This document shows positions 5,742 to 35,337 of a stretch of DNA of 64,000 bases, piece after piece. Positions within the stretch are counted from its first letter, which is position 1; the number at the start of each line of letters is the position of its first letter. Source of the stretch: an uncultured Chloroflexia bacterium. GTDB taxonomy: Bacteria > Chloroflexota > Limnocylindria > Limnocylindrales > CSP1-4. Made by a program: the position numbers and the translations under genes. A model generated the notes under the pieces. That model searched no databases, was not told where the DNA came from, and saw only the letters and a program-made list of their open reading frames with translations. Where the stretch lies: positions 672,001 through 736,000 of the forward strand of contig CAWHXD010000008.1 in the NCBI GenBank assembly GCA_963833225.1, written 5' to 3'.

Positions 5742-5788
5742 TCACCGGACGGCACTGTCGGGAGCCACTGCCCCGGGAGGACGACGAC

Positions 5789-7324
5789 ATGGAGCCCCGC
5801 CGATACGTCGGTGCCCTGGACCAGGGCACGACCAGCAGCCGCTTCATGGTCTTCGACCGATCGGGGTCCGTGGTTGCGCTCGACCAGCGGGAGCATACCC
5901 AGCTGTACCCGAAACCCGGCTGGGTGGAGCACGACCCGCTCGAGATCTGGGCCCGGTGCCGCGAGGTCATCGGCGGCGCCATGGCCAGCGCCGGCCTCGC
6001 CGCCCCGGACCTCGCGGCCATCGGGATCACGAACCAGCGGGAGACCGCGATCGTCTGGGATCGCCGGACCGGGGAACCGGTCCACAACGCCATCGTGTGG
6101 CAGGACACCCGGACCGGAGAGATCGTGGACGAGCTTGCCCGCGATGGGGGGCCTGGCCGCTTTCGCGCGATGACGGGCCTGCCGCTGGCGACCTACTTCT
6201 CGGGGCCCAAGGTCCGCTGGATCCTCGACCACGTCGAGGGCGCGCGGGACCGGGCGGAGGCGGGCGAGCTGCTGTTCGGCACGGTGGATTCGTGGCTCAT
6301 CTGGAACCTGACCGGCGGCGCTCGCGGCGGCGTCCATCTCACCGACGTCACCAACGCCTCGCGGACGCAGCTCATGGATCTCGCGACGCTCGACTGGGAT
6401 GACGGGATCCTGGAGGCGATGAGCATCCCGCGAGCGATGCTGCCGGCCATCCGGTCGTCGTCCGAGGTGCTGGCCACGTGCACGGGTGTCCTCGACGGGG
6501 TCCCCCTTGCGGGTGTCCTCGGTGACCAGCAGGCGGCCCTGTTCGGGCAGGTGTGCTTCGACGCCGGCGAGGCCAAGAACACCTACGGGACCGGCTGCTT
6601 CCTGCTCCTCAACACCGGCGAACAGCGGGTGACGTCGGAGCGGGGACTGCTGACCACGGTCGCCTACCGGCTGAGAACGGCCCCGCCCGTCTACGCCTTG
6701 GAAGGTTCGATCGCAATCGCGGGCGCGCTGGTGCAGTGGCTGCGCGACAACCTGGGCATCATCGGATCGGCGGCGGAGGTGGAGCAGCTGGCCGCGTCGG
6801 TCGAGGACAACGGCGGGGTCTCCTTCGTCCCGGCCTTCTCGGGCCTGTTCGCCCCCTACTGGCGGGCCGATGCCCGGGGCGTGATCGCGGGTCTCACCCG
6901 GTACGCCACCAAGGCGCACATCGCGCGTGCGAGCCTCGAGGCCACCGCCTGGCAGGTCCGCGAGATCCTGGACGCGATGAACGCGGATTCGGGCGTTCCG
7001 TTGACGGAGCTGCGGGTCGACGGCGGGATGGTCGCCAACAGCCTGCTCATGCAGCTGCAGGCAGACGTGCTCGGCGTGCCGGTGGTCCGGCCGGTGGTCT
7101 CCGAGACGACGGCGCTGGGCGCCGCCTACGCAGCCGGCCTGGCCGTGGGCTACTGGTCATCGCTCGACGAGCTGCGAGCCAACTGGGCCCGCGGCGCCGA
7201 GTGGACCCCGTCCATGGACCCCGACGCGCGCGAGCGCGCGCATGCGACCTGGAACAAGGCCGTCACGCGGACCTTCGACTGGGTCGAGAGCGGGGCGCCG
7301 GAACCGGGCAGCGCCGCCCCGTGA
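5789..7324 (+). CDS. glpK: Glycerol kinase
   Basis: [41 protein letters not shown]; ATG at 5789 after GGGAGG. Confidence 0.97.
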
Positions 7325-19328: not shown

Positions 19329-20773
19329 CAGGTCGCGGGCTCCCCGGGCGTGGGTTCTGGCGGCGCCGGCGGCAGGCCATCCCCGTCGGGCGGCTCGACC
19401 GGCCTGGGTTCGCGGATCCGGGCGGGGATCCCGACCGCGAGCTTGCCGGGCGGGACGTCCCTGGTCACCACGGCACCGGCGCCCGTCCTTGAGCCGTCGC
19501 CCAGCGTGACCGGCGCGCGAAGCATCGTGTCGACGCCGAGGAACACCCCGTCGCCGATCGTGGTGCGGTGCTTGCTCACGCCGTCGTAGTTGGCCGTGAT
19601 CGTGCCCGCGCCGACGTTCGTGTCGGCGCCCACGTCGGCGTCGCCGAGATAGGAGCTGTGGTGCTGGCGGACGTGCTCGGCCAGCCGGCTGTTCTTGATC
19701 TCGGCGTAGTTGCCGATCTCGCTGCGCCGGCCGACGTGGGCGCCGGGGCGCAGGTGGCTGAACGGCCCGATCCTGACGTGGTCCTCCACCGTCGAGCGCT
19801 CGATCACGCTGGCCCAGACCACGCAGTCCGGGCCGATCACGCTGTCGATGATCTGCGAGCCCGAGGCGATCCGCGTCCGCTCACCGATGCGGGTGGCGCC
19901 CCTGAGCGCGACGTTGGGCTCGAGGACCACGTCCTCGGCGAGCTCCACGCCGTGATCGAGGTACACCGTGGAGGGATCCGCCATGGTCACGCCCGCCCGC
20001 ATCCAGCGGTCGTTCATCTCGACCCGCATGTCCCACTCGGCACGCGCCAGCTGGGCGCGGTCGTTGATCCCCGTCAGGCGCCCGTCGTCGTCCACGTCGA
20101 GCGCCGCCACGAGCCGCCCGTCCTCGCGGGCAAAGCGCACGAGATCCGTGAGATAGAGCTCCCCGGTCACCGGCGATGGCCGCAGGTCCCCGATCCGCCT
20201 CCGCAGCCAGGCCGCCTCGATCGCGTACAGGCCCGCGTTGATCTCGGTCGTGCCGCGCTCGTCGTCGGTCGCGTCCTTCTCCTCGACCACCCGCTCCACG
20301 GTGCCGCCTTCGTTGCGCACGACGCGCCCGAGGCCCGATGGATCGATCGCGTCCACGCTGACGAGCGAGATCGCGGCGGCGTCCATGCGCCGGGCCTCAA
20401 GAAGCGCGACCAGCAGCTCGGCGCCAACCAGCGGCACGTCGCCCGACACGACCAGCACGTCCTCGACGTCCGCGTCGAGGACCTCGAGAGCGGCCCGGAG
20501 CGCATCGCCGGTCCCGCGCGGGACCTCCTGGAGGGCGACGTCGGCACGCTCCGCCACGGCGTCCCGGACCGCCTCGGTGGCCGGCGAGTGGACGACGAGC
20601 GGCCGGGTCCCGGTGGCCGCGACGGCGGCGTCGAGCACATAGTCGATCATCGGCCGGCCGCACAGCGCGTGGAGGACCTTGGGGGTCGTGGACCGCATCC
20701 GCGTGCCGAGACCGGCCGCGAGCACCACCGCGACCGTCTGGCGCAAAGGAACGCCGGGACTTGAGGGGGTCAT
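19328..20773 (-). CDS. glmU: Bifunctional UDP-GlcNAc pyrophosphorylase / glucosamine-1-phosphate N-acetyltransferase
   Basis: LAAGLGTRMRS, EINAGLY, ELYLTD, hexapeptide repeats, SYLGDA, NYDG. Confidence 0.96.
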   Translation of the reverse strand: MTPSSPGVPLRQTVAVVLAAGLGTRMRSTTPKVLHALCGRPMIDYVLDAAVAATGTRPLVVHSPATEAVRDAVAERADVALQEVPRGTGDALRAALEVLDADVEDVLVVSGDVPLVGAELLVALLEARRMDAAAISLVSVDAIDPSGLGRVVRNEGGTVERVVEEKDATDDERGTTEINAGLYAIEAAWLRRRIGDLRPSPVTGELYLTDLVRFAREDGRLVAALDVDDDGRLTGINDRAQLARAEWDMRVEMNDRWMRAGVTMADPSTVYLDHGVELAEDVVLEPNVALRGATRIGERTRIASGSQIIDSVIGPDCVVWASVIERSTVEDHVRIGPFSHLRPGAHVGRRSEIGNYAEIKNSRLAEHVRQHHSSYLGDADVGADTNVGAGTITANYDGVSKHRTTIGDGVFLGVDTMLRAPVTLGDGSRTGAGAVVTRDVPPGKLAVGIPARIREPRPVEPPDGDGLPPAPPEPTPGEPAT

Positions 20774-20872
20774 GGGTTCGGGCGCCGCGGCGTTCGCCAA
20801 CGGACGGCCGCCGATTGGTCGGCGGCGGCGTCGCCCGGGATGGTGTGCGATGTCGTCATGTGAGGCCGCCCG

Positions 20873-20901
20873 ATTCTGGGGTGGGTGCGCGGGGGTGTCA
20901 A
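20873..20901 (-). promoter_or_regulatory. Sigma70-type promoter upstream of glmU
   Basis: TTGACA (20901-20896), 17-nt spacer, CAGAAT (20878-20873). Confidence 0.65.
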
Positions 20902-20936
20902 CCGCGCCCGCCGTGGCCGGTCGCCGGAGCGCACGC

Positions 20937-21320
20937 TCAGCGCTCGCGACGCGCGATCGCCTCGATCTCGACCCGGCCGCCCTTGGGCAGCGCCGCGACC
21001 TGGACGGTCGACCGGGCGGGAGGCGGATCCGGCATGAACCGGGCGTACACGGCGTTGACCACCGCGAAGTCCGCCATGTCGGCCAGGAAGATCGTGGTCT
21101 TGACGACGTCGGCCCAGGCGAGGCCGGCGGCATCGAGCACCGCGGCCAGGTTCCGGAGCGAGCGCTCCGCCTGGGCCTCCACGCCATCCACGAGCTCGCC
21201 GGTCGCGGGATCCAGCCCGAGCTGGCCACTGCAGAACAGCAGCCCGTCGATGGCGATGGCCTGGCTGTAGGGGCCGATGGCGGCCGGGGCGCCGGCCGTC
21301 GAGACGGTGAGGCGGGTCAT
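20937..21320 (-). CDS. ridA: RidA-family enamine/imine deaminase
   Basis: APAAIGPYSQA, CSGQLG, VVKTTIFL, PPARSTVQVAALPKGGRVEIEAIA. Confidence 0.93.
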   Translation of the reverse strand: MTRLTVSTAGAPAAIGPYSQAIAIDGLLFCSGQLGLDPATGELVDGVEAQAERSLRNLAAVLDAAGLAWADVVKTTIFLADMADFAVVNAVYARFMPDPPPARSTVQVAALPKGGRVEIEAIARRER

Positions 21321-22375
21321 GGCTCCCTCCCTGGGTGAGGCGTCGAGGCGGTGGTGGCGGGGGCGGGCTGGAACGCGAGGATCCGGGCGGCGGTCACGGA
21401 CGGCTCGTGCTGACCCGGCGCCGGCAGGTCGCCCGCGGCGATCGCCGCGCGGACGGCGTCGGCAGCCACCGTCGCCTCCGCATGGGAAGGATAGAGCGCC
21501 CAGTGGGTTGGCCCGGAGCCGCTCACCCCAACCGGCCGTCCGAGCAGCCGCAGCAGCGCCCGCTTGAACGGCACCAGCCCGGGCTCCACGATCATGGCCG
21601 CGGGCGCCAGGTCGTTGGCGGCGGCGAGCACCGAGGCGCGGGCGAGCAGGTCCACGACCCGCAGCTGACCGCGCCGGAGCTCGTCCGCGAGGTGTTGCGA
21701 GGCCAGCCGGGCGGCACCGCCGGCGACCCGGGCGCCCTCGTCCCAGGCCCGGAACGCAGCCGGCGTGGAGATGCCGCAGGACGGCGTGACGACCAGGAGG
21801 CCCGGCCGCGCGTGCGAGGCGTCCGCGTCCCGGAGCCAGGGCAACGGCGAGAGGCGCTCTCCGCGACCCTCGACAAGCGCCGCTCCCCCGGCGAGGAAGA
21901 ACGGGACGTCGGAGCCCAGCTCCGCCGCGAGCGCCCGGCGGGCGCCGGGGTCCAGCGTGACACCCCAGGCGTCGAGCGCCGCGTCGACGGCCGCGGCCGC
22001 ATCGGACGAGCCCCCCGCCAGTCCCGCGGCGATCGGGATCCGCTTCTCGAGGCGGGCGGCCAGGGCCGGCGGCGGCTCGGAGCGCCCCCACGCCGGGTGG
22101 GCCGCCCGGCGAGTCGCGCGGATCGCGCGCAGTACCAGGTTGTCGGCGGCGTCGATGCCCGGGTCGAAGCCGGTGACGTGGAGGCTGTCCTCGCGGCCCG
22201 GTGGCAGGACGGCCACGGAGAGGCGGTCCGCGAGGTCCAGCGGGACCATCACGGAGTGGAGCTCGTGGAAGCCGTCGGGGCGCGTGCCGAGCACGGCGAG
22301 CGTCAGGTTGACCTTGGCCGGCGCAAGCCGGACCACGGGCTCGAGACGGCGGGCTGGGTCGAACGAGGCCGTCAT
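21317..22375 (-). CDS. ispE: 4-diphosphocytidyl-2-C-methyl-D-erythritol kinase
   Basis: APAKVNLTL, GFHELHS, KRIPIAAGLAGGSSDAA, LGSDVPFF, VSGSGPT. Confidence 0.94.
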   Translation of the reverse strand: MTASFDPARRLEPVVRLAPAKVNLTLAVLGTRPDGFHELHSVMVPLDLADRLSVAVLPPGREDSLHVTGFDPGIDAADNLVLRAIRATRRAAHPAWGRSEPPPALAARLEKRIPIAAGLAGGSSDAAAAVDAALDAWGVTLDPGARRALAAELGSDVPFFLAGGAALVEGRGERLSPLPWLRDADASHARPGLLVVTPSCGISTPAAFRAWDEGARVAGGAARLASQHLADELRRGQLRVVDLLARASVLAAANDLAPAAMIVEPGLVPFKRALLRLLGRPVGVSGSGPTHWALYPSHAEATVAADAVRAAIAAGDLPAPGQHEPSVTAARILAFQPAPATTASTPHPGREP

Positions 22376-22383
22376 CGCGCGGC

Positions 22384-23262
22384 TCAGCGGGCTTCCGGGA
22401 TCTCGCCGAGGGCCTCCACGAGGGCCAGCCACTCCCCCACCGCGAGGGTCTGCGGGCGGCGATCGCGGGCGATCCCGGTGGCCTCGAGGGCCGCGTCAAC
22501 CCGCTCGGGCGGGATGGGCAGCTGGCGGGTGAGCACGTTGTGGAGCATCTTGCGCCGCTCGCGAAATCCCGCCTGGACCACCCGCCACAGGCCGTCCTCC
22601 GCCTCGGCGTCGAGGCGGTCGTCGGCGTCGAACGGCTCCAGCACCAGGATCGCGGATTCCACCTTGGGCGCGGGCTCGAAGGCTTCCCTGGGCACCCGGA
22701 ACGCGACCCGCGCCCGGGCGTGGTACTGGCAGAACACCGAGAGGTAGCTCATCTCGCCGGGCGGGGCCGCGACCCGCTCCGCGACCTCGCGCTGGACCAT
22801 CAGCACCAGGCGCTCCGGGCGGGGGGCCTTGCCCAGCAGCCGGTGGAGGATGGGGCTGGTGATGTGATACGGGATGTTGGCGACCACGTCGTACGGCTCC
22901 GGCACCAGCCGGACCAGGTCCTGGTCGAGCGCGTCACCCTCCACGACCCGCAGGGCGCCGGTGTCGAGCTCGTCGGCGAAGGTCTCGCGCAGCAGCGCCA
23001 CCAGGCCCCGGTCGAGCTCCACGGCCGTCACCTGCGCACCGGCCGCCAGCAGGCCGCCGGTCAGGAACCCCAGCCCGGGCCCGATCTCCAGGACACCGCG
23101 CCCCGGTACGGGATTCGCCTCGCGCAGGATGCCCTCGAGGACGTCCACGTCGGCCAGGAAGTTCTGCGACAGGTTGTGACGCGGACGGAGGCCGGCCTCG
23201 CGCAGCCGCCGCTGGACGAAGCGTGGATCGAGGCGGAGATCGGCCGGGCGGGATCCGTTCAT
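22384..23262 (-). CDS. rsmA: 16S rRNA m6,2A dimethyltransferase
   Basis: LSQNFL, VLEIGPGLG, VANIPYHITSP, MVQREVAER, PAPKVES. Confidence 0.95.
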   Translation of the reverse strand: MNGSRPADLRLDPRFVQRRLREAGLRPRHNLSQNFLADVDVLEGILREANPVPGRGVLEIGPGLGFLTGGLLAAGAQVTAVELDRGLVALLRETFADELDTGALRVVEGDALDQDLVRLVPEPYDVVANIPYHITSPILHRLLGKAPRPERLVLMVQREVAERVAAPPGEMSYLSVFCQYHARARVAFRVPREAFEPAPKVESAILVLEPFDADDRLDAEAEDGLWRVVQAGFRERRKMLHNVLTRQLPIPPERVDAALEATGIARDRRPQTLAVGEWLALVEALGEIPEAR

Positions 23263-24326
23263 CGGGCCAGCGGCAGCGAGGGACGCGCGTCGAGGTCCAG
23301 CCCCGCCCGCACGCCGGCGGCCAGCCGCCGGGCTCCCGCCGCCCCGATCATGGCGCCGTTGTCGGTGCACAGGCCGGGCCGCGGAATGACCAGCGCCATC
23401 CCGCGCGCCTCCGCCTCGGCCGTGATCCGCCCCCGGAGCGCGGTGTTCGCCGCCACCCCGCCGCCCATGACGATCCCCCGGGCGCCCGCCTCCTCGGCAG
23501 CTCGGATCGTCTTGGTCGCGAGCACGTCCACCACGGAATCCTGGAAGCCCCAGGCGAGCTCCGCGATCACGCCGTCCGGCAGCGACCCGCCCTCGCGGGC
23601 ATCGGCCGGCAGGCCCGCATCGGTCCGCGCCTGGCCCACGGCGCGCCGCGCCGCCGTCTTGAGGCCCGAGAACGACAGGTCGTACGAGTCACCCATCCAG
23701 GCCCGCGGGAAGACGTGATCGCGGGTGGTGGCGCCCTCGGCCGCCCGGGAGATCTCCGGACCACCGGGGTAGCCCAGGCCGAGCAACCGGCCCACCTTGT
23801 CGAACGCCTCGCCGGCCGCATCGTCCACGGTCGTCCCGAGCAGGCGATAGGCCAGGTGGTCGGGCATCTCCACGATGAAGGAGTGACCGCCCGAGACGAC
23901 CAGGGCGACCAGCGGGAACGGCGGCTCCTCGCGCTCGGCCTCCCCCGGGTCCAGCAGCCAGCCGGCGTAGACATGCCCCTCCAGGTGGTTCACCGGGACC
24001 AGCGGCAGGCCGTGCGCCCACGCGAGCGTCTTGGCGAAGTTGATGCCGACCAGCAGCGACCCCGCCAGCCCCGGGCCGTAGGTGACCGCCACCGCGTCCA
24101 CGTCGGCCATCGTGACGCCGGCGGTCGCGAGCGCCTCGTCCAGCACCGGCACGATCCAGCGAAGGTGGGCGCGGGCCGCCACCTCGGGCACGATGCCCCC
24201 CGTGGGCGCATGCAGCGCGACCTGGCTCGCGACGACGTTGGCGTGGATCCGGCGTCCGCCCTCCACGAGGGCGATCCCCGTCTCGTCGCACGAGCTCTCG
24301 ATCGCGAGCAGCAGGGGTCCGCTCAT
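23259..24326 (-). CDS. tsaD: tRNA t6A synthesis protein TsaD (in-frame with upstream RimI in this sequence)
   Basis: LAIESSCDETG, GGIVPEVAARAH, NHLEGH, VSGGH, DDAAGEAFDKV, CTDNGAMI. Confidence 0.95.
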   Translation of the reverse strand: MSGPLLLAIESSCDETGIALVEGGRRIHANVVASQVALHAPTGGIVPEVAARAHLRWIVPVLDEALATAGVTMADVDAVAVTYGPGLAGSLLVGINFAKTLAWAHGLPLVPVNHLEGHVYAGWLLDPGEAEREEPPFPLVALVVSGGHSFIVEMPDHLAYRLLGTTVDDAAGEAFDKVGRLLGLGYPGGPEISRAAEGATTRDHVFPRAWMGDSYDLSFSGLKTAARRAVGQARTDAGLPADAREGGSLPDGVIAELAWGFQDSVVDVLATKTIRAAEEAGARGIVMGGGVAANTALRGRITAEAEARGMALVIPRPGLCTDNGAMIGAAGARRLAAGVRAGLDLDARPSLPLAR

Positions 24327-24905
24327 GCCCAGGTCCCCGCCCCGTCGGCCGGCGCATCCACGTCGTCGGGCACGGCATCGGGCGCCGGGGCCGGCATCGA
24401 GCTCGGCGCGGAGGGCAGCGATCCGTGACCGCATCCGCTCCTCGGCGAGCGGCTCGGTGGTCATGATCAGTGCGTCCTCTCCGTTGTCGCTGTAGTAGCG
24501 CGGCCGGATGCCAACGGGACGGAAGCCGTACTTCTCGTACAGCCGCCTGGCGGCCAGGTTGGACAGCCGGACCTCGAGGGTCGCCTCGCGGGCATGGCGG
24601 TCGAGCGCGAGGTCCATCAGCGAGAGCAGCAGGCGCTCCCCGATCCGGCGGCGCCGGTACCGCGGGTGGACCGCGAAGGTGGTGACATGCGCCTCGTCGA
24701 CCATCAGCCAGATCCCGCCATAGGCCACGATCTCGCCGTCGATCGTCCCGACGAGGTACATCGCGAGCCGGTTGGCCTCCAGCTCCTGGCGATAGGCGTG
24801 GGCGGGCCAGGGCGTGGTGAACGATGCCCGCTCGATGAGCTGGACGGCCGGCAGGTCGGCCACCGTCATCGGGCGGATCTGGAGGACCGGAACCCGGATG
24901 CTCAC
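24323..24905 (-). CDS. rimI: Ribosomal-protein-alanine N-acetyltransferase (end given is the TGA in the alternative frame)
   Basis: ERASFTTPW, DEAHVTTFAV, TLEVRLSN, RPRYYSDNGEDALIM. Confidence 0.9.
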
Positions 24906-25585
24906 CCGGCGCCTCCGGTCAGCTCGACGGCGTCGTCACCGGGCGCGTCACGCACGCCCCGCGGCAGGGTGACGTACTCGGGGACCAGGCGGGCGAGGTC
25001 GTCGGCGTCGCCCGCGGCGAGACGGGCCGCCCCCGCGGCGAGGAGCGCCCCGGCCAGGTCGGCGCGGGCGGCGTCCCCGCGGGCCTGCGCATCTTCTGGG
25101 GCCCGTCCGGCGAGGTCCACCGCGACCAGGCGCTCGCCCGGGCGCAGCTCTGGCTCGGTACCGCCGGGCAGGATCACCGGTGTCGCCCCAGGGCGCGACA
25201 GGACGCGGTCGGAGGGGCCGGCGGGCTGGAGCAGCGCGGCTGGCGTCCCGAGCGCGTCACCGGCGCTCGCGAGGAGCGCGCTGGACGTGGCCACGCCCGC
25301 GATCGGGAGCCGGAGCGCGTGGGCGAGGCCCTTCGCGGTGGCGAGACCGACACGGAGCCCGGTGAAGGCGCCAGGACCGGTCCCCACGACCAGCCCGCCC
25401 AGGTCCGACGGGGCCACGCCTCGGTCGCGCAGCAGGGCCTCGATGCGCGTCAGCAGCTCCTCGCCGTGCCGGTAGCCCGCGGTCCAGTCCCGCGCCTCGA
25501 CGACCGTCCCGTCGGGGGCGCCGAGCGCGATCACCGCCCGGGTGGTGGCGGTGTCGATCACGAGGATCGGGCCGTCGGCCGTCAT
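24902..25585 (-). CDS. tsaB: tRNA t6A synthesis protein TsaB
   Basis: LVIDTAT, RHGEEL, GTGPGAFTGLRVGLATAKGLA, LVPEY. Confidence 0.92.
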   Translation of the reverse strand: MTADGPILVIDTATTRAVIALGAPDGTVVEARDWTAGYRHGEELLTRIEALLRDRGVAPSDLGGLVVGTGPGAFTGLRVGLATAKGLAHALRLPIAGVATSSALLASAGDALGTPAALLQPAGPSDRVLSRPGATPVILPGGTEPELRPGERLVAVDLAGRAPEDAQARGDAARADLAGALLAAGAARLAAGDADDLARLVPEYVTLPRGVRDAPGDDAVELTGGAG

Positions 25586-26055
25586 GCGGCGGCCTCCAGG
25601 TAGCGCGCGTAGGCCGGGTCCCCGGAGCGGAGGCGGAGGCGGCGCGGCTCGTCGCCCGTGCCGTCGATCATCACGTCGAGGCGGCTCGCGGGCAGCGCTC
25701 GCCCCAGTCGCTCGGCCCACTCCACCAGCACGACGCCCTCGAGCTGCCGCTCGTCGAGGAGGCCACCAGCGAGGGCATCGGCAGCATCCTCGATCCGGTA
25801 CAGGTCAAGGTGGAACATCGGCAGCCGGCCCAGGTACTCGGTCATCAGGACGAAGGTGGGCGAGCTGACGATGTCGTCGATCCCGAGGCCGACCGCAAAG
25901 CCCTTGGCGAACTGGGTCTTGCCCGCGCCGAGGTCGCCGACCAGGCACAGCAGGTCACCCGGCCGGGCGACGACGGCCAGGCGGGCGGCGAGCGATCGGG
26001 TCTGGGCGGGGTCGAGCGTCGTGACGACGCGCTCCGCCGGCGGGGGCGTGGACAC
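25582..26055 (-). CDS. tsaE: tRNA t6A synthesis ATPase TsaE
   Basis: GDLGAGKT, VSSPTF, HLDLYR, LVEWAER; GTG start at 26055. Confidence 0.94.
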   Translation of the reverse strand: MSTPPPAERVVTTLDPAQTRSLAARLAVVARPGDLLCLVGDLGAGKTQFAKGFAVGLGIDDIVSSPTFVLMTEYLGRLPMFHLDLYRIEDAADALAGGLLDERQLEGVVLVEWAERLGRALPASRLDVMIDGTGDEPRRLRLRSGDPAYARYLEAAA

Positions 26056-26094
26056 TGGGGCCGAGGGTAGCCGAAGCGGACGGGCGCCGCCGCC

Positions 26095-26303
26095 CGTCCT
26101 CTCCAGGGGGCCGCGCCGGTGCCCAGGGCAGTCAAGTCGCTGGTCGGCGACGGAGCTTCTGGTTGTGGGCTGTCGGACGCACCAACGGCACCTCCTGGCC
26201 CTGCGACAATCGCACCTTGACCAAGAGTCGCCGCCGGAACAGGATCCCGTCACACGACTAGCGTGCCGCCGCCGAGTGGGATCGAGCGGGCCGGGAGAGG
26301 ACG
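26095..26303 (+). repeat. Long imperfect inverted repeat (rod hairpin C) ending on the RBS of the next gene
   Basis: CGTCCTCTCC (26095-26104) pairs with GGAGAGGACG (26294-26303); CGCTGGTCG (26138-26146) pairs with CGACTAGCG (26255-26263); further inner helices. Confidence 0.65.
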
Positions 26304-26732
26304 ATGCGTCAGGTCAGTCGGATCGGATGGGCGGGATTGGCGATCTTCGCAGCAGCTCTGGCGATCGGGCTGGTTGTTGCGGTCGGGTCAGCCATCGCCG
26401 CCGGCGACTGGGACCTCGCCCGGCAACCCTGGATCGGCATCGGGATGACGCTGATCGTCGTCGGACTGGCTGGCACGGCCGGCTTCGCGGTGTTGCTCGA
26501 CGTGATCGAGCCGATCGGCTGGTGGCGGCTTCTCGCCGTGCCGCCTGCGTTGCTGGTCGGGGGCTTCTGGGCGTTCGTGACGATCTTCGGACTGCCGACG
26601 TCGGGGGGTCCTGATTTCGACGTGGCGACCATCCTGTACACGCTGCCGGTGATGATGGGCGTGCTGGTGATTGCCACGGTCGCCCTGGCCGTGCCCGCCG
26701 CGGTCGGTCGCCGTGCCGCCGCTGGTCGCTGA
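26304..26732 (+). CDS. Hypothetical 4-TM membrane protein
   Basis: Four hydrophobic stretches; GGAGAGG RBS; lone plus-strand gene within a minus-strand run. Confidence 0.7.
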   Translation: MRQVSRIGWAGLAIFAAALAIGLVVAVGSAIAAGDWDLARQPWIGIGMTLIVVGLAGTAGFAVLLDVIEPIGWWRLLAVPPALLVGGFWAFVTIFGLPTSGGPDFDVATILYTLPVMMGVLVIATVALAVPAAVGRRAAAGR

Positions 26733-26802
26733 TCGCCACCCAGGCCCAGGGGTTTCGGGAATCGAATAGCCCGCGGGCCGGCCGGGTGCCCGCCGAGTCT
26801 GA

Positions 26803-27004
26803 CGCGGTGTCGTGCGCGTGTGAGCCGTCAGCCGGTCAGCGACCCAACGGTCGGCCACGTACAACGATTGCGTCGTCCGGCGGCGCGATTGTTCCGTGGG
26901 TGGATCGCCCACCCGATGAATGTGACGCGCGGTGGCGCGGATGTCGCCTGGAACAGACCGTTGGGCCGCTGGCGGGACCGCTCGCCGGCACGCGCGAGAC
27001 CGCG
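26803..27004. repeat. Long imperfect inverted repeat (rod hairpin D); structured ncRNA candidate
   Basis: Pairings: 26803-26808/26999-27004, 26837-26852/26956-26971 (15 of 16), apex 26896-26902/26906-26912. Confidence 0.65.
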
Positions 27005-27042
27005 GGCGGGCGCCGCCGACCGTGCGCTCCGGTCGCGCCGGC

Positions 27043-28050
27043 TCAGACGAGGCGCTCGAGATCGCCGACGGGGACGTCAACCGACGGCTGCCCCGGGATC
27101 GCGATCCGGGCGGCCTCGGTGACCACGTTGGCCGCGAACCGGCGCGCACCCAGCATCTCGATCACGCGACCCTCGAGCCCGGCGCTGGCCCCACTCCGGA
27201 TCCGGACCCAGTCGGCATCCGCGACCGGCAGGTCACCGGGGTCGGCGTCGAAGACGAGGGCGGGGGGGTCGACCAGCAGGGCGACATCGGCGCCCGCCAT
27301 GCGCTCGAGGATGACCGCCACGGGGCTGGCGATCGGCCGGCGGACCACGCCGTCGAGCACGAGCACACCGAACGGCGCCACGCTATGGAGCGACGCCCGC
27401 TGGCGTCGTTCCGACGCCTCGAAGTCCCGCAGCTCCTTGCCGGGCAGCGTCGCGACCACGATCCCCCGCGCGCCCATCGCCCGGGCCCGGGTCAGGGCCT
27501 CCGCATCGATGCGAGCGCCAACCACCAGGATCGCGCCGGCCCGGCCGACATCGATGCCACCCGCCCGCAGCTCACCGGACGGATCGGTCGCAAGCTCGAG
27601 ACGCCCCCGTGTCGCCGAACCCGCGGCAAACGCACCGCGCAGGGCCGGGCCGGCTGCCCGGACGCGGATCTCCCCACCGGGCTGGACGACGGTGACCACG
27701 CCCGGCATGGGCGAGTCGACGATGTCGCGGTGCTGGCCGGTGACCAGGCGCCATCGCTCCCGGCGTCCCGGCAGCCGGGCGAGCAGCTCGCCGTCGTGAT
27801 CGCGACGGCGACCGGGAACGGCGGTCCAGCGGGTGCCGGCCACGGGGTGTGCGTCGTCGGTCCCCGACCGGACGTCGATCTCCTCGATCCGCCGGTCGCG
27901 GAGGTGCTCGAGCAGCGGGTCACCGGCCTCGACCGAGGCGCCCGGGTCCACGAGCGACCGGTCTCCGGGCGGCAGCGCGAACCGGGCCTCGAGACCGTGA
28001 GCGAGGAGCGCCCGCGACGGGACCTCATCAAGCCAGTCGGACGGGGTCAC
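27043..28050 (-). CDS. Uncharacterised partner of the GlmL-like protein (barrel-sandwich-like N-terminus, beta/beta/alpha core, KOW-like C-terminus)
   Basis: LVDPGASVEAGDPL; VDSPMPGVV; ILVVGARIDAEALTRARAMGARGIVV; VRIRSGASAGLEGRVIE; GTGA overlap with the upstream gene. Confidence 0.7.
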   Translation of the reverse strand: MTPSDWLDEVPSRALLAHGLEARFALPPGDRSLVDPGASVEAGDPLLEHLRDRRIEEIDVRSGTDDAHPVAGTRWTAVPGRRRDHDGELLARLPGRRERWRLVTGQHRDIVDSPMPGVVTVVQPGGEIRVRAAGPALRGAFAAGSATRGRLELATDPSGELRAGGIDVGRAGAILVVGARIDAEALTRARAMGARGIVVATLPGKELRDFEASERRQRASLHSVAPFGVLVLDGVVRRPIASPVAVILERMAGADVALLVDPPALVFDADPGDLPVADADWVRIRSGASAGLEGRVIEMLGARRFAANVVTEAARIAIPGQPSVDVPVGDLERLV

Positions 28051-29651
28051 GCGTCCATCCCCGTCCACGCGCCCGACTGCCAGGCGGCAAGCCGCTCGCG
28101 GCGGGGTTCGGGTCGTTCGGGAAGCCTGAGAGGGATGTCCCGAAGGTCGACCAGGAGCCCACCGAGCCCACCCGCGACCTCGACGGCAGCGTGCCTGACC
28201 CGGACGCCGAGGTCGACCGGGTCCCGGAACTGGAGCTCGACGACCGCTCGTTCGCCGGGCGGCAGGTCCACGCGCTCGATCCCACCCGGCACGAGCTCGA
28301 GCTCCGAGGGTCCCTCCGGGCGCGCGACCGACAGGCTGCCGGCCACCCTGCCGGCACGAAGCCCCGCCGGCATCACCACGCTGCCCAGCGGGACGAGCAG
28401 GTCGTCACGGAGGTCGGCCATCACCTGGCGGCGCTCGTCCTCGTCCTCGATGGTCCCGAGCGGGGCCAGGAGGCGCGCGTGGTCCCAGCCAAGGGCGCGG
28501 ACGCCCGGCCGGCGGAGCACATCGGCCAGCGCGAGCGCGATCGCCGGCGCCGGCGCCACCGCAAAGGCACCGCCGGTCGCGACCACCACACCGGGTCCGG
28601 GCCTCTCGTCCAGCATCGGCGTCGCCGCGACCAGCCGCGCCAGCGCCGCCCGGGCCGCGGCCATGCGCAGGAGCGCGCCATCGCCCGGCGCATCTCCCCA
28701 GGGCGCGAGCGCCAGCTCGCGCAGGCGGTCCCGGACCCGGAGCCTGTCGACCGGCGTCGTGAGCCAGCCGGCCACGGCGTCGAGGTGGGCGTCCGTGAAC
28801 GACGGGGGCAGGAGCGCGGCCGCCGGGACCGACGCCCATCGCGCCCGTGAGACCGCGCCGGCCCGCCAGTGGGCGACCGCGCGGGTGGCGCCGCCCTGCC
28901 CGATCTCGACGACCTCCACGTCCCGCCGCAGGACCTCGGCCAGGGTGCCGGTCGCGGCGGCGAGCGCTCGCCGGCCGTCATCGCTGCCACCCCGCAGGCC
29001 GTCGAGGAGGTCGCGCAGCGCGTCGCCGCCGTCCGCCAGCGGGGATGGGCCGAGCACCGTTGACCCGGCACGATCGCCGAGCAGGGCCTCGAAGCGATTG
29101 CCGGGCGTGGCCAGGCCGCCCGCGAGCACCGTCACCAGGTCCGGGCGCCGGTCGGCGGCCGCGGCGACCACGGCGGCAAGATCGGGGAGCAGCGTCCGTT
29201 CGTCGGCACCGGGAGGATCCGCGGTGGCGGCGACCACGATCGTGATCCGCGGGTCCGCGAGCGCCGTGACCACCGGCAGGATCTCGGCACCATCGAGCAC
29301 GAGCGTCCGGACGCGCCAGCCGGCGGTGGCGGCGATGGCGGCCAGCGGCTCCGCGATCCGCCGCGTGGCCGCCAGGACGGCGGCCTGGGGCGACCGAGTC
29401 GTGGAGCATCCGACGCGCGGAAGGTCGACACCGGACCCCGTCTGCGCGAGGCCGAGCTGGCCGGCCAGGTCCGGGTCGGCCTGGGCCAGCCGCCGGCGCA
29501 ACCGCTCCACCAGCGCGTCCGCGCCCACGGACGTCGAGGCGGAGGTCGATCCCAAGAGGCGCCAGGTGCCGCCAACCGCAGCCACGATCGCGACGGCGTT
29601 GGTCGCGGTCCCACGGTCGAGGGCGACGAAGACCCGGCGCTCGGTGCTCAC
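28047..29651 (-). CDS. Glutamate mutase L (GlmL/MutL)-like ASKHA-fold protein
   Basis: VALDRGTAT (phosphate-1-like) followed by WRLLGSTSASTSV; VVEIGQGGAT (phosphate-2-like); VVATGGAFAVAP (adenosine-like); GGLGGLLVDLR C-terminus. Family assignment is from recalled resemblance. Confidence 0.65.
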   Translation of the reverse strand: MSTERRVFVALDRGTATNAVAIVAAVGGTWRLLGSTSASTSVGADALVERLRRRLAQADPDLAGQLGLAQTGSGVDLPRVGCSTTRSPQAAVLAATRRIAEPLAAIAATAGWRVRTLVLDGAEILPVVTALADPRITIVVAATADPPGADERTLLPDLAAVVAAAADRRPDLVTVLAGGLATPGNRFEALLGDRAGSTVLGPSPLADGGDALRDLLDGLRGGSDDGRRALAAATGTLAEVLRRDVEVVEIGQGGATRAVAHWRAGAVSRARWASVPAAALLPPSFTDAHLDAVAGWLTTPVDRLRVRDRLRELALAPWGDAPGDGALLRMAAARAALARLVAATPMLDERPGPGVVVATGGAFAVAPAPAIALALADVLRRPGVRALGWDHARLLAPLGTIEDEDERRQVMADLRDDLLVPLGSVVMPAGLRAGRVAGSLSVARPEGPSELELVPGGIERVDLPPGERAVVELQFRDPVDLGVRVRHAAVEVAGGLGGLLVDLRDIPLRLPERPEPRRERLAAWQSGAWTGMDA

Positions 29652-29658
29652 CGCGTCG

Positions 29659-29667
29659 ATGCTACCA
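29659..29667 (-). promoter_or_regulatory. Extended -10 of a probable leaderless transcript of the GlmL-like pair
   Basis: TGgTAGCAT, 7 nt upstream of GTG 29651. Confidence 0.55.
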
Positions 29668-29678
29668 GCGGCCCGGCC

Positions 29679-29969
29679 CTACGCGTCCCAGCCGTCGCCC
29701 TCGTCGAGCTCCTCGAGACGGTCGATCAGTGCCTCGATCCCGACGTCATCGGCCATCAGCTCGGTCGCGGACGGCGACTCGCCACCGAACACTTCGCGCA
29801 GGACCGGATCGAAGAACAGCATGGCCGGCGCGCCGAGCGGCCGGTACGGGCGGCTCGCCTCCAGGAAGTGGACCGCGGGCCCGGTCAGGCCGCGCAACCG
29901 GATCTCCCTCGCCACCGCCTCGACGAGGGCCTCGCGATGCGGGTCGAGCGGCTCCATCGGGAAGCTCAC
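29679..29969 (-). CDS. Hypothetical small protein (96 aa)
   Basis: RGLTGPAVHFLEASRPYRPLG...FFDP...IEALIDRLEE; GTGA overlap with the macrodomain gene. Confidence 0.7.
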   Translation of the reverse strand: MSFPMEPLDPHREALVEAVAREIRLRGLTGPAVHFLEASRPYRPLGAPAMLFFDPVLREVFGGESPSATELMADDVGIEALIDRLEELDEGDGWDA

Positions 29970-30589
29970 CCGGCGGTTCCTCCATCGTCGATCCAGCCGC
30001 CGACACCCGGGGTCACCCCGGCGTTCCGGCCCGGGCCAACCGGCTGCCAGGTCGCGGGCTCGATCAGCGGTCGCGACGGTGCGGGCTCGTCCGCGGACAG
30101 TGCCGCCGCGAATGCCTCGTAGGCCGCGGTCCCGCGGAGCGCGAACACGACATGCTCGACGGTCGGGGACCGTTGCAGCTCGTCGCGCACGGCGGCCACG
30201 GCGGTCCTCGCCGCCTCGTCCATCGGAAAGCCACCGATCCCGGTGCCCAGCGCCGGAAAGGCGATGCTCGAAAGGCCCAGCTCCCGAGCGCGGGCCATCA
30301 CGCTCCGGGCGGCCTTCTCGATGGCCGCCGCGCTCGTCCGGCGATCTCGTTCGAGGGACACCGCGTGGATCACGACCCTGGCCGCGAGGCTGCCGGCGTG
30401 GGTGACGATCGCGTCGCCAAGCGCTGCGGGGGCCTGCCGCAGGGCCGCGAACTCGATGGCGTCGCCACCGGCCCGCTTGAGCTCACCCGCGATCCCGGCC
30501 GACATCCACAGGGAGGTGGCGGCGGGAGCCACGATGGCGTCAACCTCGAGATCACAGATATCCCCGTTCCAGATCTCGATGCGCGTCAT
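29966..30589 (-). CDS. Macrodomain (ADP-ribose-binding) protein
   Basis: IEIWNGDICDLEVDAIV, TxAGSL, VIHAVS, IAFPALGTGIGGFP. Confidence 0.9.
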   Translation of the reverse strand: MTRIEIWNGDICDLEVDAIVAPAATSLWMSAGIAGELKRAGGDAIEFAALRQAPAALGDAIVTHAGSLAARVVIHAVSLERDRRTSAAAIEKAARSVMARARELGLSSIAFPALGTGIGGFPMDEAARTAVAAVRDELQRSPTVEHVVFALRGTAAYEAFAAALSADEPAPSRPLIEPATWQPVGPGRNAGVTPGVGGWIDDGGTAG

Positions 30590-31848
30590 CCGGACCTCCC
30601 ACCCGCAAGCGTGCGCGCCCCCGCCACGCGACCGGCGGCATGGTACACCCGGGCCAGCCGGTGGGACATCGCGGTCACCACCTCGTAGCTGATCGTCCCG
30701 CAGGTCGCGGCCAGGTCGAAGGCGGTGATCCGCTCCGCGCCCTGCTCACCGAGCAGCACGAACTCGTCATCTGCCCCGACGGGCGACCCCGGGACGTCCG
30801 TCACGTCGGCCATCACCGCGTCCATCGACACCCGCCCCACGAGCGGCACCCGCACCCCGCGGACGAGCGCCTCGGCCCGGTCGGAAAGGCACCGCCGCCA
30901 GCCGTCGCCGTACCCGACCGGGAGGGTCGCGATCCGCGTCCGGCGAGCGGTCACGAAGGTCGGCCCATAGCTCACCCCGTGGCCGGCCGGCAGGTCGATC
31001 ACCCGGACCGGGCGGGCCTTGAGGGCCATCACGGGACGCAGGCGCCCGGCCGGACCCTGGTTCCGATCGGACGGGACGAGCGTGTCCGGGACCAGGCCGT
31101 AGACGGCGATCCCGGTCCGCACCGCGTCCCAGCGGGTCACGGCCTCCCCGAGAACCCCGCCACTCCCCGCGAGATGGCGGCGGACGGTTCCGGGTCCGGG
31201 CCCCCACGCGACCGCGTCAAGGAGCCGCAGGACATCCGCGAACCGTGCGTCCTGGCCGAGCGTGCTCGCGGCATCGTCGGCAGCGGCCAGGTGCGTCCAG
31301 GTCCCTCCGAGCCGGACGCCGTCCGCCGACGCGATCGTGGCCAGGGCGGCCCGGGCGTCGTCGGCCAGCACCCCGCCCCGACCGAGCCCGGTCTCGATCT
31401 CCAGGTGCACCTCGAGCGGGGGCTGGAGGCCGGCCGCCGCCCGCAGCATCTCGCGGCTCGGCTCTCCCGGGCCGACGGCAACCGCGATCGAGGCGCGGGC
31501 GGCCGCCGGCACGGCCTCCGGCGGCACGGGATACAGGACGAGCAGCGGAAGCGTCACCCCGGCCTCCCGCAGCTCGAGCGCCTCGTCGAGGGTTGCGACC
31601 GACAACCCGTCGGCGCCGGCGGCCTCGAGGGCGAGCGCGATGGGCACGGCTCCGTGACCGTACGCATCGGCCTTGACCACCGGCTCCACGCGGACGCCGG
31701 CCCCGGAGGCCTCCCGCAGGGCCGCGAGATTGCCGCGCAGGGCGTCGAGATCCAGCTCCAGCCACGCGAGGCGGGCAAGCGGGGCCAGGCCGGCCGCCGC
31801 CAGGCGGGACTCGATCGGCTCCGTCCCGGGCGCCCCTGGCGCGCTCAG
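30586..31848 (-). CDS. alr: Alanine racemase (start uncertain)
   Basis: VVKADAYGHG, HLEIETGLGRGG, GVSYG, LPVGYGDG, GRVSMD, TISYEV. Confidence 0.94.
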   Translation of the reverse strand: MSAPGAPGTEPIESRLAAAGLAPLARLAWLELDLDALRGNLAALREASGAGVRVEPVVKADAYGHGAVPIALALEAAGADGLSVATLDEALELREAGVTLPLLVLYPVPPEAVPAAARASIAVAVGPGEPSREMLRAAAGLQPPLEVHLEIETGLGRGGVLADDARAALATIASADGVRLGGTWTHLAAADDAASTLGQDARFADVLRLLDAVAWGPGPGTVRRHLAGSGGVLGEAVTRWDAVRTGIAVYGLVPDTLVPSDRNQGPAGRLRPVMALKARPVRVIDLPAGHGVSYGPTFVTARRTRIATLPVGYGDGWRRCLSDRAEALVRGVRVPLVGRVSMDAVMADVTDVPGSPVGADDEFVLLGEQGAERITAFDLAATCGTISYEVVTAMSHRLARVYHAAGRVAGARTLAGGRSG

Positions 31849-32930
31849 CGCTCGGCTCCGTCCGGGTCCGGATCGGAGGACGCCGTCCCGGATCCATCGC
31901 GGACCCCGAAGCCCAGCGTTCGCCCGGCGCGGATCCGCTCCGCCCTCGCGGCCAGGCGCTTGCGCACCATCGGGATGGCCTCCGGGAGATCGGACGCCAG
32001 GAGGCCCGCGTCGCCGATCCGCTCGCGGACGAGCTCGCCTGCCTCGCCGTGGAGGTAGACGCCGAGGCATGCGGCGTCGTAGGTCCCGAGACCCTGGGCC
32101 AGGAGGGCCCCGATCGTGCCCGCCAGGACGTCGCCGGTCCCGCCCGACGCCATCGCCGGGTTCTCGAACGGCGCGAAGGAGGCGCTCCCATCCGGGGAGG
32201 CGATGACCGTGTTCGCCCCCTTGAGCACGACGACCTGGTTCCACTCGGCGGCGGCGGCCCTGGCCGCCCGCACCCGCGCGGCGTCGTCCGCGGCGAGATC
32301 GCCGTCCTCGGCGGGGTCATGACCACTGCCCGCGCGGAGCCGCGCGAACTCGCCCGCGTGCGGCGTCAGGACGCACGGACGCGTGACCCCGGTCCACCAC
32401 TCATCGGCCGAGGCGAGGGTCCGGAGCGCCTCCGCGTCGAGCACCACGGGCGGCCCACCCGCCTCCTCGGGGCTGGTGAGCAGGAGCCGCAACAGGTCCG
32501 CCGTGGCCAGCGACGGTCGCAGCCCCGGCCCGATGACGAGGGCGTCGTGCTCGTGGTCGAGCACCTTGGACAGGGCCGGCTCGGGGTCGACCTCCTCGAC
32601 ATCGTCCTCGGGCAGGGCCATCGTCGTGGCTTCCACCACCTTGGCCGCGAACAGGGGCTGGAGCGACTCGGGCACGGCGAGCGTGACCAGTCCGGCGCCG
32701 GCGCGTCCCGCGGCGCGGCAGACGAGCAGGGCCGCCCCGGCGTAGTCCAGGGAGCCCGCGATCACCAGGATCTTCCCGAAGGTGCCCTTGTGGCCACGCG
32801 CGTCCCGCACCGGGATCAGGCGGGCGACGGACGCATCATCGAGCCTGGCGACGCCATCGGGCATCGCGCCACCACCCGCGGACGCCTCCTCCGCGCGCCT
32901 CCCGAACCCGACCGGGCGCCGATCACCCAC
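31845..32930 (-). CDS. nnrD: ADP-dependent NAD(P)H-hydrate dehydratase (stand-alone)
   Basis: HKGTFGKILVIAGSLDYAGAA, IGPGL, LTPHAGEFARL, VLKGA, MASGGTGDVLAG. Confidence 0.92.
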   Translation of the reverse strand: MGDRRPVGFGRRAEEASAGGGAMPDGVARLDDASVARLIPVRDARGHKGTFGKILVIAGSLDYAGAALLVCRAAGRAGAGLVTLAVPESLQPLFAAKVVEATTMALPEDDVEEVDPEPALSKVLDHEHDALVIGPGLRPSLATADLLRLLLTSPEEAGGPPVVLDAEALRTLASADEWWTGVTRPCVLTPHAGEFARLRAGSGHDPAEDGDLAADDAARVRAARAAAAEWNQVVVLKGANTVIASPDGSASFAPFENPAMASGGTGDVLAGTIGALLAQGLGTYDAACLGVYLHGEAGELVRERIGDAGLLASDLPEAIPMVRKRLAARAERIRAGRTLGFGVRDGSGTASSDPDPDGAER

Positions 32931-33504
32931 GGCCCTCGTCCTCCACTCCGGGTGCCGGACCCTCGAGCGCCGCGCCCGCCTGGTGGAGCTCGCGCAGGCG
33001 TTCCATCCGGGCCAGCAGCTTGCGCTCCCGATCGTCGAGACGCGCGTCGATGTCGAGCGGGAAGACGTACTTGCCGCCCGCCGTCCGCACGCCGAACGCG
33101 ACGGCCACCGCGAACTCGGCCTCGTGGCTGATCGAGACCGCGATCCTGCCCATCCCGAGCTGTCCGGCCCGCTCCGCGGCGCGCCCGTGGAGGATGACGT
33201 TCGGCTGGCCGGTCGGCAGCCGCTCGACCTCGATGTCGCGCCAGCCCACCCCGCGCACGCCAAGGCCGAGCACCTTGGACACGGCCTCCTTGGCCGCCCA
33301 GCGACCGGCGAACGTCTCGGGGCGCTGGCGCACGTAGCGCTGCTCGCGGGCGGTCAGGACGCGGTTCGCGAACCGCATCCCGAACCGGGTGATCGCGGTC
33401 GCGATCCGGTCCACCTTGACGATGTCGATCCCCAGCTCGGTCGTGCCCGGCGGCACGATGCCCGGCGGCAGGACCGGATCCGCGGCGGGTCCGGGGCGGG
33501 TCAT
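32923..33504 (-). CDS. acpS: Holo-ACP synthase
   Basis: LGIDIV, FAGRWAAKEAVSKVLG, VSISHE. Confidence 0.93.
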   Translation of the reverse strand: MTRPGPAADPVLPPGIVPPGTTELGIDIVKVDRIATAITRFGMRFANRVLTAREQRYVRQRPETFAGRWAAKEAVSKVLGLGVRGVGWRDIEVERLPTGQPNVILHGRAAERAGQLGMGRIAVSISHEAEFAVAVAFGVRTAGGKYVFPLDIDARLDDRERKLLARMERLRELHQAGAALEGPAPGVEDEGRG

Positions 33505-33507
33505 CGC

Positions 33508-35337
<1,830 letters not shown>

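Follow-up and report, generated by a model that had tools for sequence, protein, structure and literature searches.

Organization of the geneA-geneB locus

The DNA analysed here is a 64,000-nucleotide (64-kb) stretch from an uncultured Chloroflexia bacterium (contig CAWHXD010000008.1, positions 672,001 to 736,000), referred to below as the window; all coordinates are counted from its first nucleotide (nt). On its minus strand lie two overlapping genes, here called geneA and geneB. geneA encodes an ATPase-like protein with the fold of acetate and sugar kinases, Hsc70 and actin (ASKHA), and geneB encodes a partner protein that belongs to no known family. An earlier reading, made from the sequence alone, had singled out this pair as an orphan GlmL/MutL-like protein with a coupled partner, and all of the motifs and coordinates quoted in that sequence-only reading were confirmed in the sequence and its translation. 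The pair and its control features are arranged as follows.

29659..29667, minus strand: extended -10-like element TGGTAGCAT, read from the sequence, with its hexamer TAGCAT at 29664-29659
28047..29651, minus strand: geneA, ASKHA-fold ATPase-like protein of 534 amino acids (aa), GTG start
28047..28050, minus strand: GTGA start/stop overlap, with the GTG of geneB (28050-28048) lying over the TGA of geneA (28049-28047)
27043..28050, minus strand: geneB, partner protein without a known family, 335 aa, GTG start

Fragments across the window have a GC content of 66-76%. Both open reading frames (ORFs) carry the coding signature of this genome of 70-76% GC, with a third-position GC content of 0.87-0.90 and a second-position GC content of 0.54-0.58, and the minus-strand gene run to which they belong was picked out by a codon-position GC filter. 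The longest ORF for geneB spans 27043..28068; the GTG at 28050 is taken as the true start because the closest relatives listed are ~333-338 aa long. The candidates that were scored included 1,126 homologues of geneA and 728 of geneB at E<=1e-3. The coding composition, the many homologues and a rare, positionally conserved TAGCAT hexamer place the features of the two genes beyond chance.

Conservation of the pair

Related loci were gathered by a scan of species-representative genomes that returned 341 relatives of geneA, and the best 80 loci were kept. All of them come from Chloroflexota assemblies, mostly labelled Limnocylindria/Limnocylindrales, and they are close kin, 45-83% identical to geneA. 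The genomes with the pair include complete chromosomes, such as OY970218.1 and OY970306.1. In tblastn searches with the window proteins, geneB was found directly 3' of geneA in 74/80 loci. The DNA of the remaining 6 ends 0-307 nt past geneA, so that geneB follows geneA in 74/74 loci where the downstream DNA suffices. The plasmid collection gave no tblastn match with geneB or with P0391, a diverged orthologue of geneA described below.

The GTGA overlap noted in the sequence-only reading was borne out at 28047-28050, and a 4-nt start/stop overlap is present in 61 of the 74 loci holding geneB (ATGA in 36, GTGA in 25). This arrangement implies that geneB would be translationally coupled to geneA. 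These results demonstrate that geneA and geneB form a conserved bicistronic unit.

A promoter-like element upstream of geneA

The earlier reading had also placed an extended -10 box of the pair's own 7 nt before the first start. The element is present: TGGTAGCAT is followed by 7 nt (CGACGCG) and then by the geneA GTG at 29651, and TAGCAT has this single occurrence in the window, both strands counted. A hexamer of the form TAGCAT, TAGGAT or TACCAT (58, 9 and 1 loci, respectively) lies 6-7 nt 5' of an in-frame GTG or ATG in 68 of the 75 usable related loci, with a spacer of 6 nt in 29 loci and 7 nt in 39. As background, the remaining 2.38 Mb of the related loci hold 6 TAG[CG]AT sites on both strands.

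The distance from the hexamer to the start codon is too short for a Shine-Dalgarno site, and the spacers are divergent and GC-rich. Promoters of leaderless mRNAs, with a -10 of the form TANNNT 6-8 nt before the start codon, are well known in Actinobacteria and Deinococcus. The pattern found in 68/75 loci, a conserved -10 hexamer at 6-7 nt without a Shine-Dalgarno site, resembles these promoters both in its position before GTG or ATG and in its conservation; it differs from them in that the TGn extension is seen in only 31/75 usable loci, and the start is here inferred from sequence. Because an AT-rich hexamer stands at a fixed spacing, the spacers are divergent and GC-rich, and a ribosome-binding site would have no room, the TAGCAT element is likely to be the promoter of a leaderless geneA-geneB transcript. 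A generic sigma-70 promoter/terminator scan of 26000-31000 returned 0 sites, since no -35 match is present.

geneA has an ASKHA fold and conserved nucleotide-binding motifs

The three sequence motifs that had been described as ASKHA-like though degenerate are all found in geneA: DRGTAT at residues 12-17, EIGQGGAT at 249-256 and ATGGAF at 358-363. The motifs are conserved, and their key residues are invariant, in an alignment of 30 geneA sequences (alignment A1). These residues are D12, G14, T15 and A16 of the phosphate-1 motif, E246, E249 and G251 of the phosphate-2 motif, and G360 and G361 of the adenosine motif. In a wider alignment of 26 sequences (A3) D12 is nearly invariant (at least 90%), and G14 and G360 remain invariant down to 27% identity. 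Conservation of the phosphate-1 (DxGTA), phosphate-2 (E-I-G) and adenosine (GG) motifs suggests that geneA likely retains nucleotide binding.

An AlphaFold model of geneA, built with 30 homologues, has a mean predicted local distance difference test score (pLDDT) of 78 and a predicted template-modelling score (pTM) of 0.82. Residues 493-534 are of low confidence, and a helix is called at 516-528; this conserved C-terminal helix carries tryptophans. Models were compared to the PDB with Foldseek, and the best 50 of at least 500 matches per model are the ones listed. For the geneA model, 146 PDB matches reached E<=1e-3, and the best 50 are almost all ASKHA proteins. The acetophenone carboxylase core (5.7e-8) and N-methylhydantoinase (4.8e-7) are among the top three, with acetone carboxylase beta at 4.8e-6; PilM, FtsA, exopolyphosphatase, glycerol kinase, Hsp70, RACo (the corrinoid reductive activator) and an HgdC-type activator are also present. 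geneA is an ASKHA-fold protein that carries the phosphate-1, phosphate-2 and adenosine motifs, as the motifs had led the sequence-only reading to expect. Sequence searches of PDB chains found nothing, whether started from the single geneA sequence or from a profile.

Family relationships of geneA

A profile of 30 geneA relatives was searched against 1.84 billion representatives; 817 proteins matched at E<=1e-3, of which 132 reached E<=1e-30, with full-length diverged orthologues at E ~1e-27 to 1e-32. Among 31 long profile matches, four hit the Pfam family PF13941 (P0391 at 2.2e-24, P0366 at 2.5e-15, P0386 at 3.4e-10 and P0381 at 4e-5). Within alignment A3, PF13941 (MutL) is matched by 5/26 members, the best at 2.2e-24, and three members exceed its 27-bit cut-off (P0391 with 86.5, P0366 with 56.6 and P0386 with 39.7 bits). 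Among the diverged geneA orthologues no Pfam family except PF13941 reaches significance; no other ASKHA family appears there, and Hydantoinase_A and Hydantoinase_B are matched by 0/26 geneA family members. P0391 is named 'glutamate mutase L [Candidatus Limnocylindria bacterium]' at NCBI.

The PF13941 model has 450 positions and is matched at 2-196 in P0391 and at 326-448 in P0386. Since both ends of the model are matched in different orthologues, the GlmL-length core of geneA appears complete, and residues from ~420 to the end would be an addition. Past this core, geneA has an extra C-terminal beta-rich domain (~420-493) and the tail helix (516-528).

By the curated cut-offs of PF13941 and TIGR01319, geneA does not belong to GlmL/MutL, and the results with these models point to homology with the GlmL lineage, not to membership by curated rule. 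The link is indirect because PF13941 was found in diverged orthologues and not in geneA itself. The likeness to GlmL/MutL that had been proposed for geneA is thus upheld indirectly, through 5/26 members of its family; geneA itself matches no GlmL model. Placed through its orthologues in this way, geneA is a far-diverged branch of the GlmL/MutL (PF13941) lineage.

geneB is predicted to have three domains

The motifs LVDPGASVEAGDPL, SPMPGVV and ILVVG...ALTRARAMGARGIVV are present in geneB, which also contains a nearly invariant stretch, GGIDVG...ILVVG.RIDAEALTRARAMG..G. geneB itself has a single Pfam result, KOW at E=0.09, and no NCBIfam match. Across 30 geneB sequences the Pfam matches are weak: KOW in 16/30 (best 5.4e-4), RRP40_N in 14/30 and NIT in 6/30, with Biotin_lipoyl_2 (2/30), HlyD_3 (1/30) and Rv2993c-like_N (1/30) rarer. 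All of the KOW (PF00467) scores lie under the 22.3-bit cut-off.

The geneB model (pLDDT 84, pTM 0.82) begins with strands at 21-59 and 108-154, between which lies a basic, lower-confidence insertion (61-105). A low-confidence linker leads to a beta-alpha-beta-alpha-beta-alpha-beta-beta core (173-267), and the C-terminus is a five-stranded barrel (281-334). The N-terminal part is predicted to be a split barrel-sandwich-like domain (~20-60 and 108-154), whose hairpin has, in the sequence, no lysine able to carry biotin or lipoate. The core is predicted to resemble swivelling beta/beta/alpha domains and contains the invariant polar residues K205 and H222; the end is predicted to be a KOW/SH3-like barrel. 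The sequence-only reading had guessed at the same three domains, and the guess fits the weak fold and profile matches.

Fold matches of geneB include Thermotoga maritima NusG (2xhc, 1.9e-4) and the PA domain of ZNRF3 (2.1e-3). RraA (1q5x) is matched with a target-normalised template-modelling score (TM-score) of 0.43 and a probability of 0.98, a match that is weak overall, and KOW-bearing ribosomal proteins are matched weakly over ~80 columns. MccF/LdcA, pyruvate kinase (3t05), RnfC (probability 0.20) and SteA (rank 50) are further weak matches. PA, RraA and LdcA domains and the swivelling domain of DdrA are classed in one swivelling beta/beta/alpha fold in SCOP.

In the Protein Atlas, geneB adjoins Chloroflexota clusters. 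At a score of 0.93, and as leads only, it lies near a Bacillota cluster with RnfC_N in 25% and Biotin_lipoyl in 19% of its members and near a Planctomycetota cluster with Biotin_lipoyl in 16%. Designed 'Cake' repeat proteins were also returned as PDB relatives of geneB; they match the basic insertion and were treated as compositional, as was one further PDB-chain match (E=0.72).

geneA and geneB are predicted to form a complex

The complex prediction for geneA and geneB reached an interface score (interaction prediction score from aligned errors, ipSAE) of 0.87 in three runs, as compared to 0.00 for the best of 3 controls. This mark is reached by 116/157 solved complexes and by 2/215 mismatched pairs, counts that are rough because custom alignments were used. 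At least 92% of the contacts agree among the three runs, and the partner pLDDT is at least 85. The outcome fits the earlier proposal that the two proteins act together, and geneA and geneB are confidently predicted to form a heterocomplex.

The predicted interface comprises ~155 contacts. Its geneA side takes in residues 36-50, 124-134, 156-169, 304-327, 365-367 and the tail (529-532), and the stretch 304-327 includes the conserved PWGDA.GDGA loop. On geneB the contact residues are drawn from all three domains; in the predicted interface, geneB 5-13 and 305-312 stand opposite geneA 304-327 and its tail.

The earlier reading had proposed that the pair may reconstitute a split reactivase. This was not supported: geneA keeps the whole GlmL-length core together with an extra C-terminal domain, so that geneB would be an added partner and not a split-off reactivase piece, and no genuine geneA-geneB fusion was found among 11 long proteins. 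These 11 proteins, retrieved as longer relatives of geneB, are all singletons. P0408 was considered as a fusion and rejected as a frameshifted assembly artefact, since its matching patches alternate with out-of-frame Arg/Ala-rich stretches. Others among the long proteins run on into TsaE and TsaD and were likewise rejected as fusion evidence. As an observation in its own right, the public-collection entries P0408, P0374, P0351 and P0406 are singletons in which parts of geneA, geneB, TsaE and TsaB/TsaD are strung together.

orf96 and the surrounding genes

Two further features frame the pair.

29679..29969, minus strand: orf96, conserved protein without a known family, 96 aa, ending 27 nt 5' of geneA
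19328-35337, minus strand: syntenic block, with a gene order common to loci L001-L080 (tblastn)

orf96 has no match in Pfam or NCBIfam. It was found in 74/80 related loci at 65-91% identity, which makes it more conserved than geneA or geneB; over 23 sequences the identity per column averages 80%. An invariant core, ASRPYR.LG..AMLFF.P, is accompanied by an acidic tail, and every Atlas neighbour of orf96 is a Chloroflexota cluster of 96-aa proteins. Judged from its sequence and position, orf96 is a possible third member of the geneA-geneB unit, and it might be a third component or a client of the pair.

The 80 loci share the gene order glmS-acpS-nnrD-alr-macro-orf96-geneA-geneB-tsaE-tsaB-rimI/tsaD-ksgA-ispE-glmU, even where geneA identity falls to 45%. 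In the window, a Pfam scan identified the 5' neighbours on the minus strand as rpsI, a carbamoyltransferase gene, a TPR-protein gene, cdaA, ybbR, glmM, glmS and acpS, followed by genes for NAD(P)H-hydrate dehydratase, alr and a macro-domain protein and then by orf96, geneA and geneB. Past a gap of ~790 nt, geneB is followed by tsaE, tsaB, an apparent rimI-tsaD fusion, ksgA, ispE, glmU and corC. The genes around the pair make peptidoglycan precursors, and ribosomal-protein genes, recO, glycerol genes and others lie elsewhere in the window. The whole window gave 0 Rfam matches.

The sequence-only reading had noted that the window holds no mutase or B12 enzyme, and this stands for the scanned ORFs of the 64-kb window. 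The same search found no dehydratase or ammonia-lyase genes near the pair. The 8-kb flanks of the 80 related loci contain the same housekeeping genes and no B12 enzyme, and geneA does not lie beside glmS/glmE of the mutase type or another aminomutase in the window or in these flanks.

tsaE comes after geneB in 70/80 loci and, among the matches listed by tblastn coordinates, stands within ~150 nt 3' of geneB in most of them. In the window the gap between the two (26254-27042) holds a plus-strand ORF at 26304-26732 that encodes a hydrophobic protein of 142 aa without a Pfam match and that has a tblastn match in 0/80 related loci. In L003, the closest relative, geneB and tsaE are likewise ~1 kb apart, and the gap looks like a clade-specific insertion. 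A minus-strand ORF at 26388-27149 was rejected as a gene: its translation is Arg-rich, it has no Pfam match and it failed the codon-position GC filter.

Several other ORFs of the window are of separate note. The longest ORF at 23259-24905 (minus strand, 548 aa) holds a GNAT acetyltransferase (RimI-like) and a TsaD domain together, and may be either a true fusion or two genes joined by reading through from the longest start. At 30586-33504 (minus strand) there is extensive overlap among the longest ORFs of acpS, alr and NAD(P)H-hydrate dehydratase, and their Pfam domains begin ~165 residues in, which places the true starts well downstream of the first GTG or TTG; such over-extension of starts is common in this high-GC genome. 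A glycerol utilisation cluster at 5076-11685 (plus strand) encodes a MIP-family channel, an FGGY-family kinase that is probably glycerol kinase, and FAD and Fe-S/CCG-domain proteins resembling the subunits of anaerobic glycerol-3-phosphate dehydrogenase.

Interpretation of the pair

The reading to which we give about even chances is that the pair is an ATP-driven two-subunit machine of the GlmL lineage, in which geneB passes the work on to a client protein. Transcription from the TAGCAT -10, extended by TGn in some lineages, would begin at or next to the geneA GTG and produce a leaderless mRNA, and geneB would be translated by coupling through the 4-nt start/stop overlap. By analogy, geneA would use the binding and hydrolysis of ATP to power conformational changes, and geneB might serve as an adaptor or client-binding subunit that passes these changes to another protein. 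The client would not be encoded beside the pair and need not be a B12 enzyme. ATP-driven conformational changes have been shown for reactivases of the DdrAB type. For GlmL, ATP-driven conformational work is proposed in a passage of PMC4682846. A GlmL-lineage ATPase in complex with a new partner is held much more firmly than the chaperone step.

Several results weigh against the reading of the pair as an ATP-driven machine of the GlmL lineage. The chaperone or reactivase step is drawn from analogy only. geneA itself has no Pfam or NCBIfam match at E<=1 and none at E<=5, and even P0391 reaches just 41.5 of the 204 bits that TIGR01319 requires and 38.7 of the 475 required by the GlmL equivalog. 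The Foldseek TM-scores of geneA are low (0.13-0.52) and single out no ASKHA subfamily, so that the fold class is clear and the subfamily is not distinguished. Those of geneB are 0.04-0.43, with weak matches of which one has E<=1e-3. Neither DdrA, which the sequence-only reading had named as a target for the fold search, nor glycerol dehydratase reactivase is among the best 50 matches of geneA or of geneB. The interface is no more conserved than the rest of either protein (0.565 vs 0.576 for geneA and 0.536 vs 0.572 for geneB), and this absence of enrichment gives no support either way. Finally, the adjacency of geneA and geneB is weak functional evidence because the whole ~15-kb glmS-glmU order is equally conserved; the -10 element and the predicted complex weigh more as evidence for a unit.

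Other explanations were considered for the same observations. That the pair is a true B12-enzyme reactivase like GlmL or DdrAB, with an adenosylcobalamin-dependent client (glutamate mutase, a different mutase or an eliminase) whose gene would lie in some other part of the genome, is in our view unlikely. PF13941 as the sole significant Pfam family among the orthologues, the corrinoid-protein activator RACo among the geneA fold matches and the resemblance of the geneB core to swivelling beta/beta/alpha domains all speak for it. However, the scanned ORFs of the window include no B12 enzyme, the 8-kb flanks of the 80 loci contain the same housekeeping genes, and the position of the pair is a fixed one among housekeeping genes, outside any catabolic cluster. 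The NCBIfam GlmL models score far under their cut-offs, and DdrA is missing from the best 50 fold matches of either protein. According to a passage in PMC6169038, corrin-ring synthesis was absent from all of the reconstructed freshwater Chloroflexi assemblies, which has no bearing on enzymes that use B12. It is distinctly unlikely that geneA is instead a metabolic enzyme that phosphorylates a small molecule (a kinase, carboxylase or hydantoinase/oxoprolinase-like protein) with geneB as its second catalytic or carrier subunit. Acetophenone carboxylase and N-methylhydantoinase are in the geneA top three, followed by acetone carboxylase beta, but their E-values are barely better than those of PilM, FtsA and Hsp70, at TM-scores of about 0.2-0.3, and none of the 26 scanned family members matches the Hydantoinase_A/B Pfam families. 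Similarly, the invariant K205 and H222 of the geneB core would suit a catalytic subunit, whereas the lack of a biotin- or lipoate-carrying lysine in its hairpin argues against a carrier.

An FtsA/PilM/MreB-type scaffold or cytoskeleton-like role of geneA, with geneB, in the envelope or in division would draw on the peptidoglycan-precursor genes of the region (glmS, glmM, alr and glmU), on PilM and FtsA among the top geneA fold matches, on the tryptophan-bearing C-terminal helix and on the cell-division regulator SteA as a weak match of geneB at rank 50. We consider this role very unlikely: the neighbours carry little functional signal because the whole region is syntenic, the geneA tail (529-532) contacts geneB in the model and is therefore not membrane-anchor-like, and by sequence geneA is tied to PF13941, with no such tie to the FtsA, MreB or PilM families. 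Least credible, and most improbable in our estimate, is a part for the pair in RNA or tRNA modification with tsaE-tsaB-tsaD, the genes of N6-threonylcarbamoyladenosine (t6A) synthesis, in which the KOW-like domain of geneB would bind RNA. TsaB and TsaD themselves have the ASKHA fold, but neither is among the best 50 geneA fold matches. The position of tsaE after geneB in 70/80 loci is likewise set against the ~790 nt with an opposite-strand ORF that separate the two in the window and against the pair's own promoter-like element. The KOW matches in 16/30 geneB sequences (best 5.4e-4), together with the NusG and ribosomal-protein fold matches, are consistent with RNA binding, yet all of the KOW scores are under the Pfam cut-off.

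A broader form of the preferred reading, that the ATP-driven pair is a two-subunit ASKHA machine within the core gene set of Limnocylindria-type Chloroflexota and independent of a B12 mutase, is offered tentatively and is doubtful as it stands. If it is true, the GlmL lineage would have a broader housekeeping role in remodelling, and geneB would be a new type of adaptor that combines a split barrel-sandwich with a swivelling-type domain and a KOW-like barrel.

The GlmL family and the ASKHA reactivases are already known. Proteins of the GlmL/MutL kind routinely receive the annotation 'glutamate mutase L', and a reactivase role is presumed for them; they are thinly documented, and the lineage's own activity is poorly established. 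The literature searched contains no description of a far GlmL branch at a housekeeping locus with a probable leaderless promoter and a coupled partner outside the known families. It includes no paper naming PF13941 and little in print on GlmL with glutamate mutase, and none of its papers joins ASKHA with a swiveling domain or a barrel-sandwich. The far GlmL branch described here occupies a fixed housekeeping position in related Chloroflexota assemblies, with no mutase nearby, which calls for caution in transferring the name 'glutamate mutase L' to relatives of geneA. The pair offers a tractable two-protein system for expression, assay and structure, through which the function of this ASKHA lineage could be approached.

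Comparison with known systems

The best fold matches of geneA (5.7e-8 to 4.8e-6) are the ASKHA subunits of hydantoinase A and of the acetone and acetophenone carboxylases, which are multi-subunit ATP-dependent enzymes. geneA differs from them in that its TM-scores to these subunits are only 0.23-0.31 and none of the 26 family members has a matching Pfam hit.

DdrA consists of an ASKHA ATPase and a swivelling beta/beta/alpha domain. The pair can be likened, by analogy, to DdrA-DdrB (PduG-PduH) and EutA as an ASKHA-based, ATP-dependent remodelling machine, which in DdrAB has two subunits, and the geneB core may correspond in fold to the swivelling domain of DdrA, as its weak matches suggest. Unlike DdrA and EutA, the pair has no Pfam match to those families, and neither is among the best 50 fold matches per model; the pair is thus not placed within DdrA/DdrB. 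The three-domain build of geneB also differs from that of DdrB.

GlmL/MutL (PF13941, TIGR01319, NF040745), the accessory protein of B12-dependent glutamate mutase, is the known system closest in lineage. geneA is longer, with 534 aa against a 450-position model because of its extra C-terminal domain; it is not beside glmS/glmE, and it has an obligate-looking partner in geneB. The classical glmS-glmL-glmE operon is not known to have such a partner. Like GlmL/MutL, geneA has an ASKHA fold with conserved nucleotide-binding motifs, and its diverged orthologues match both ends of the PF13941 model.

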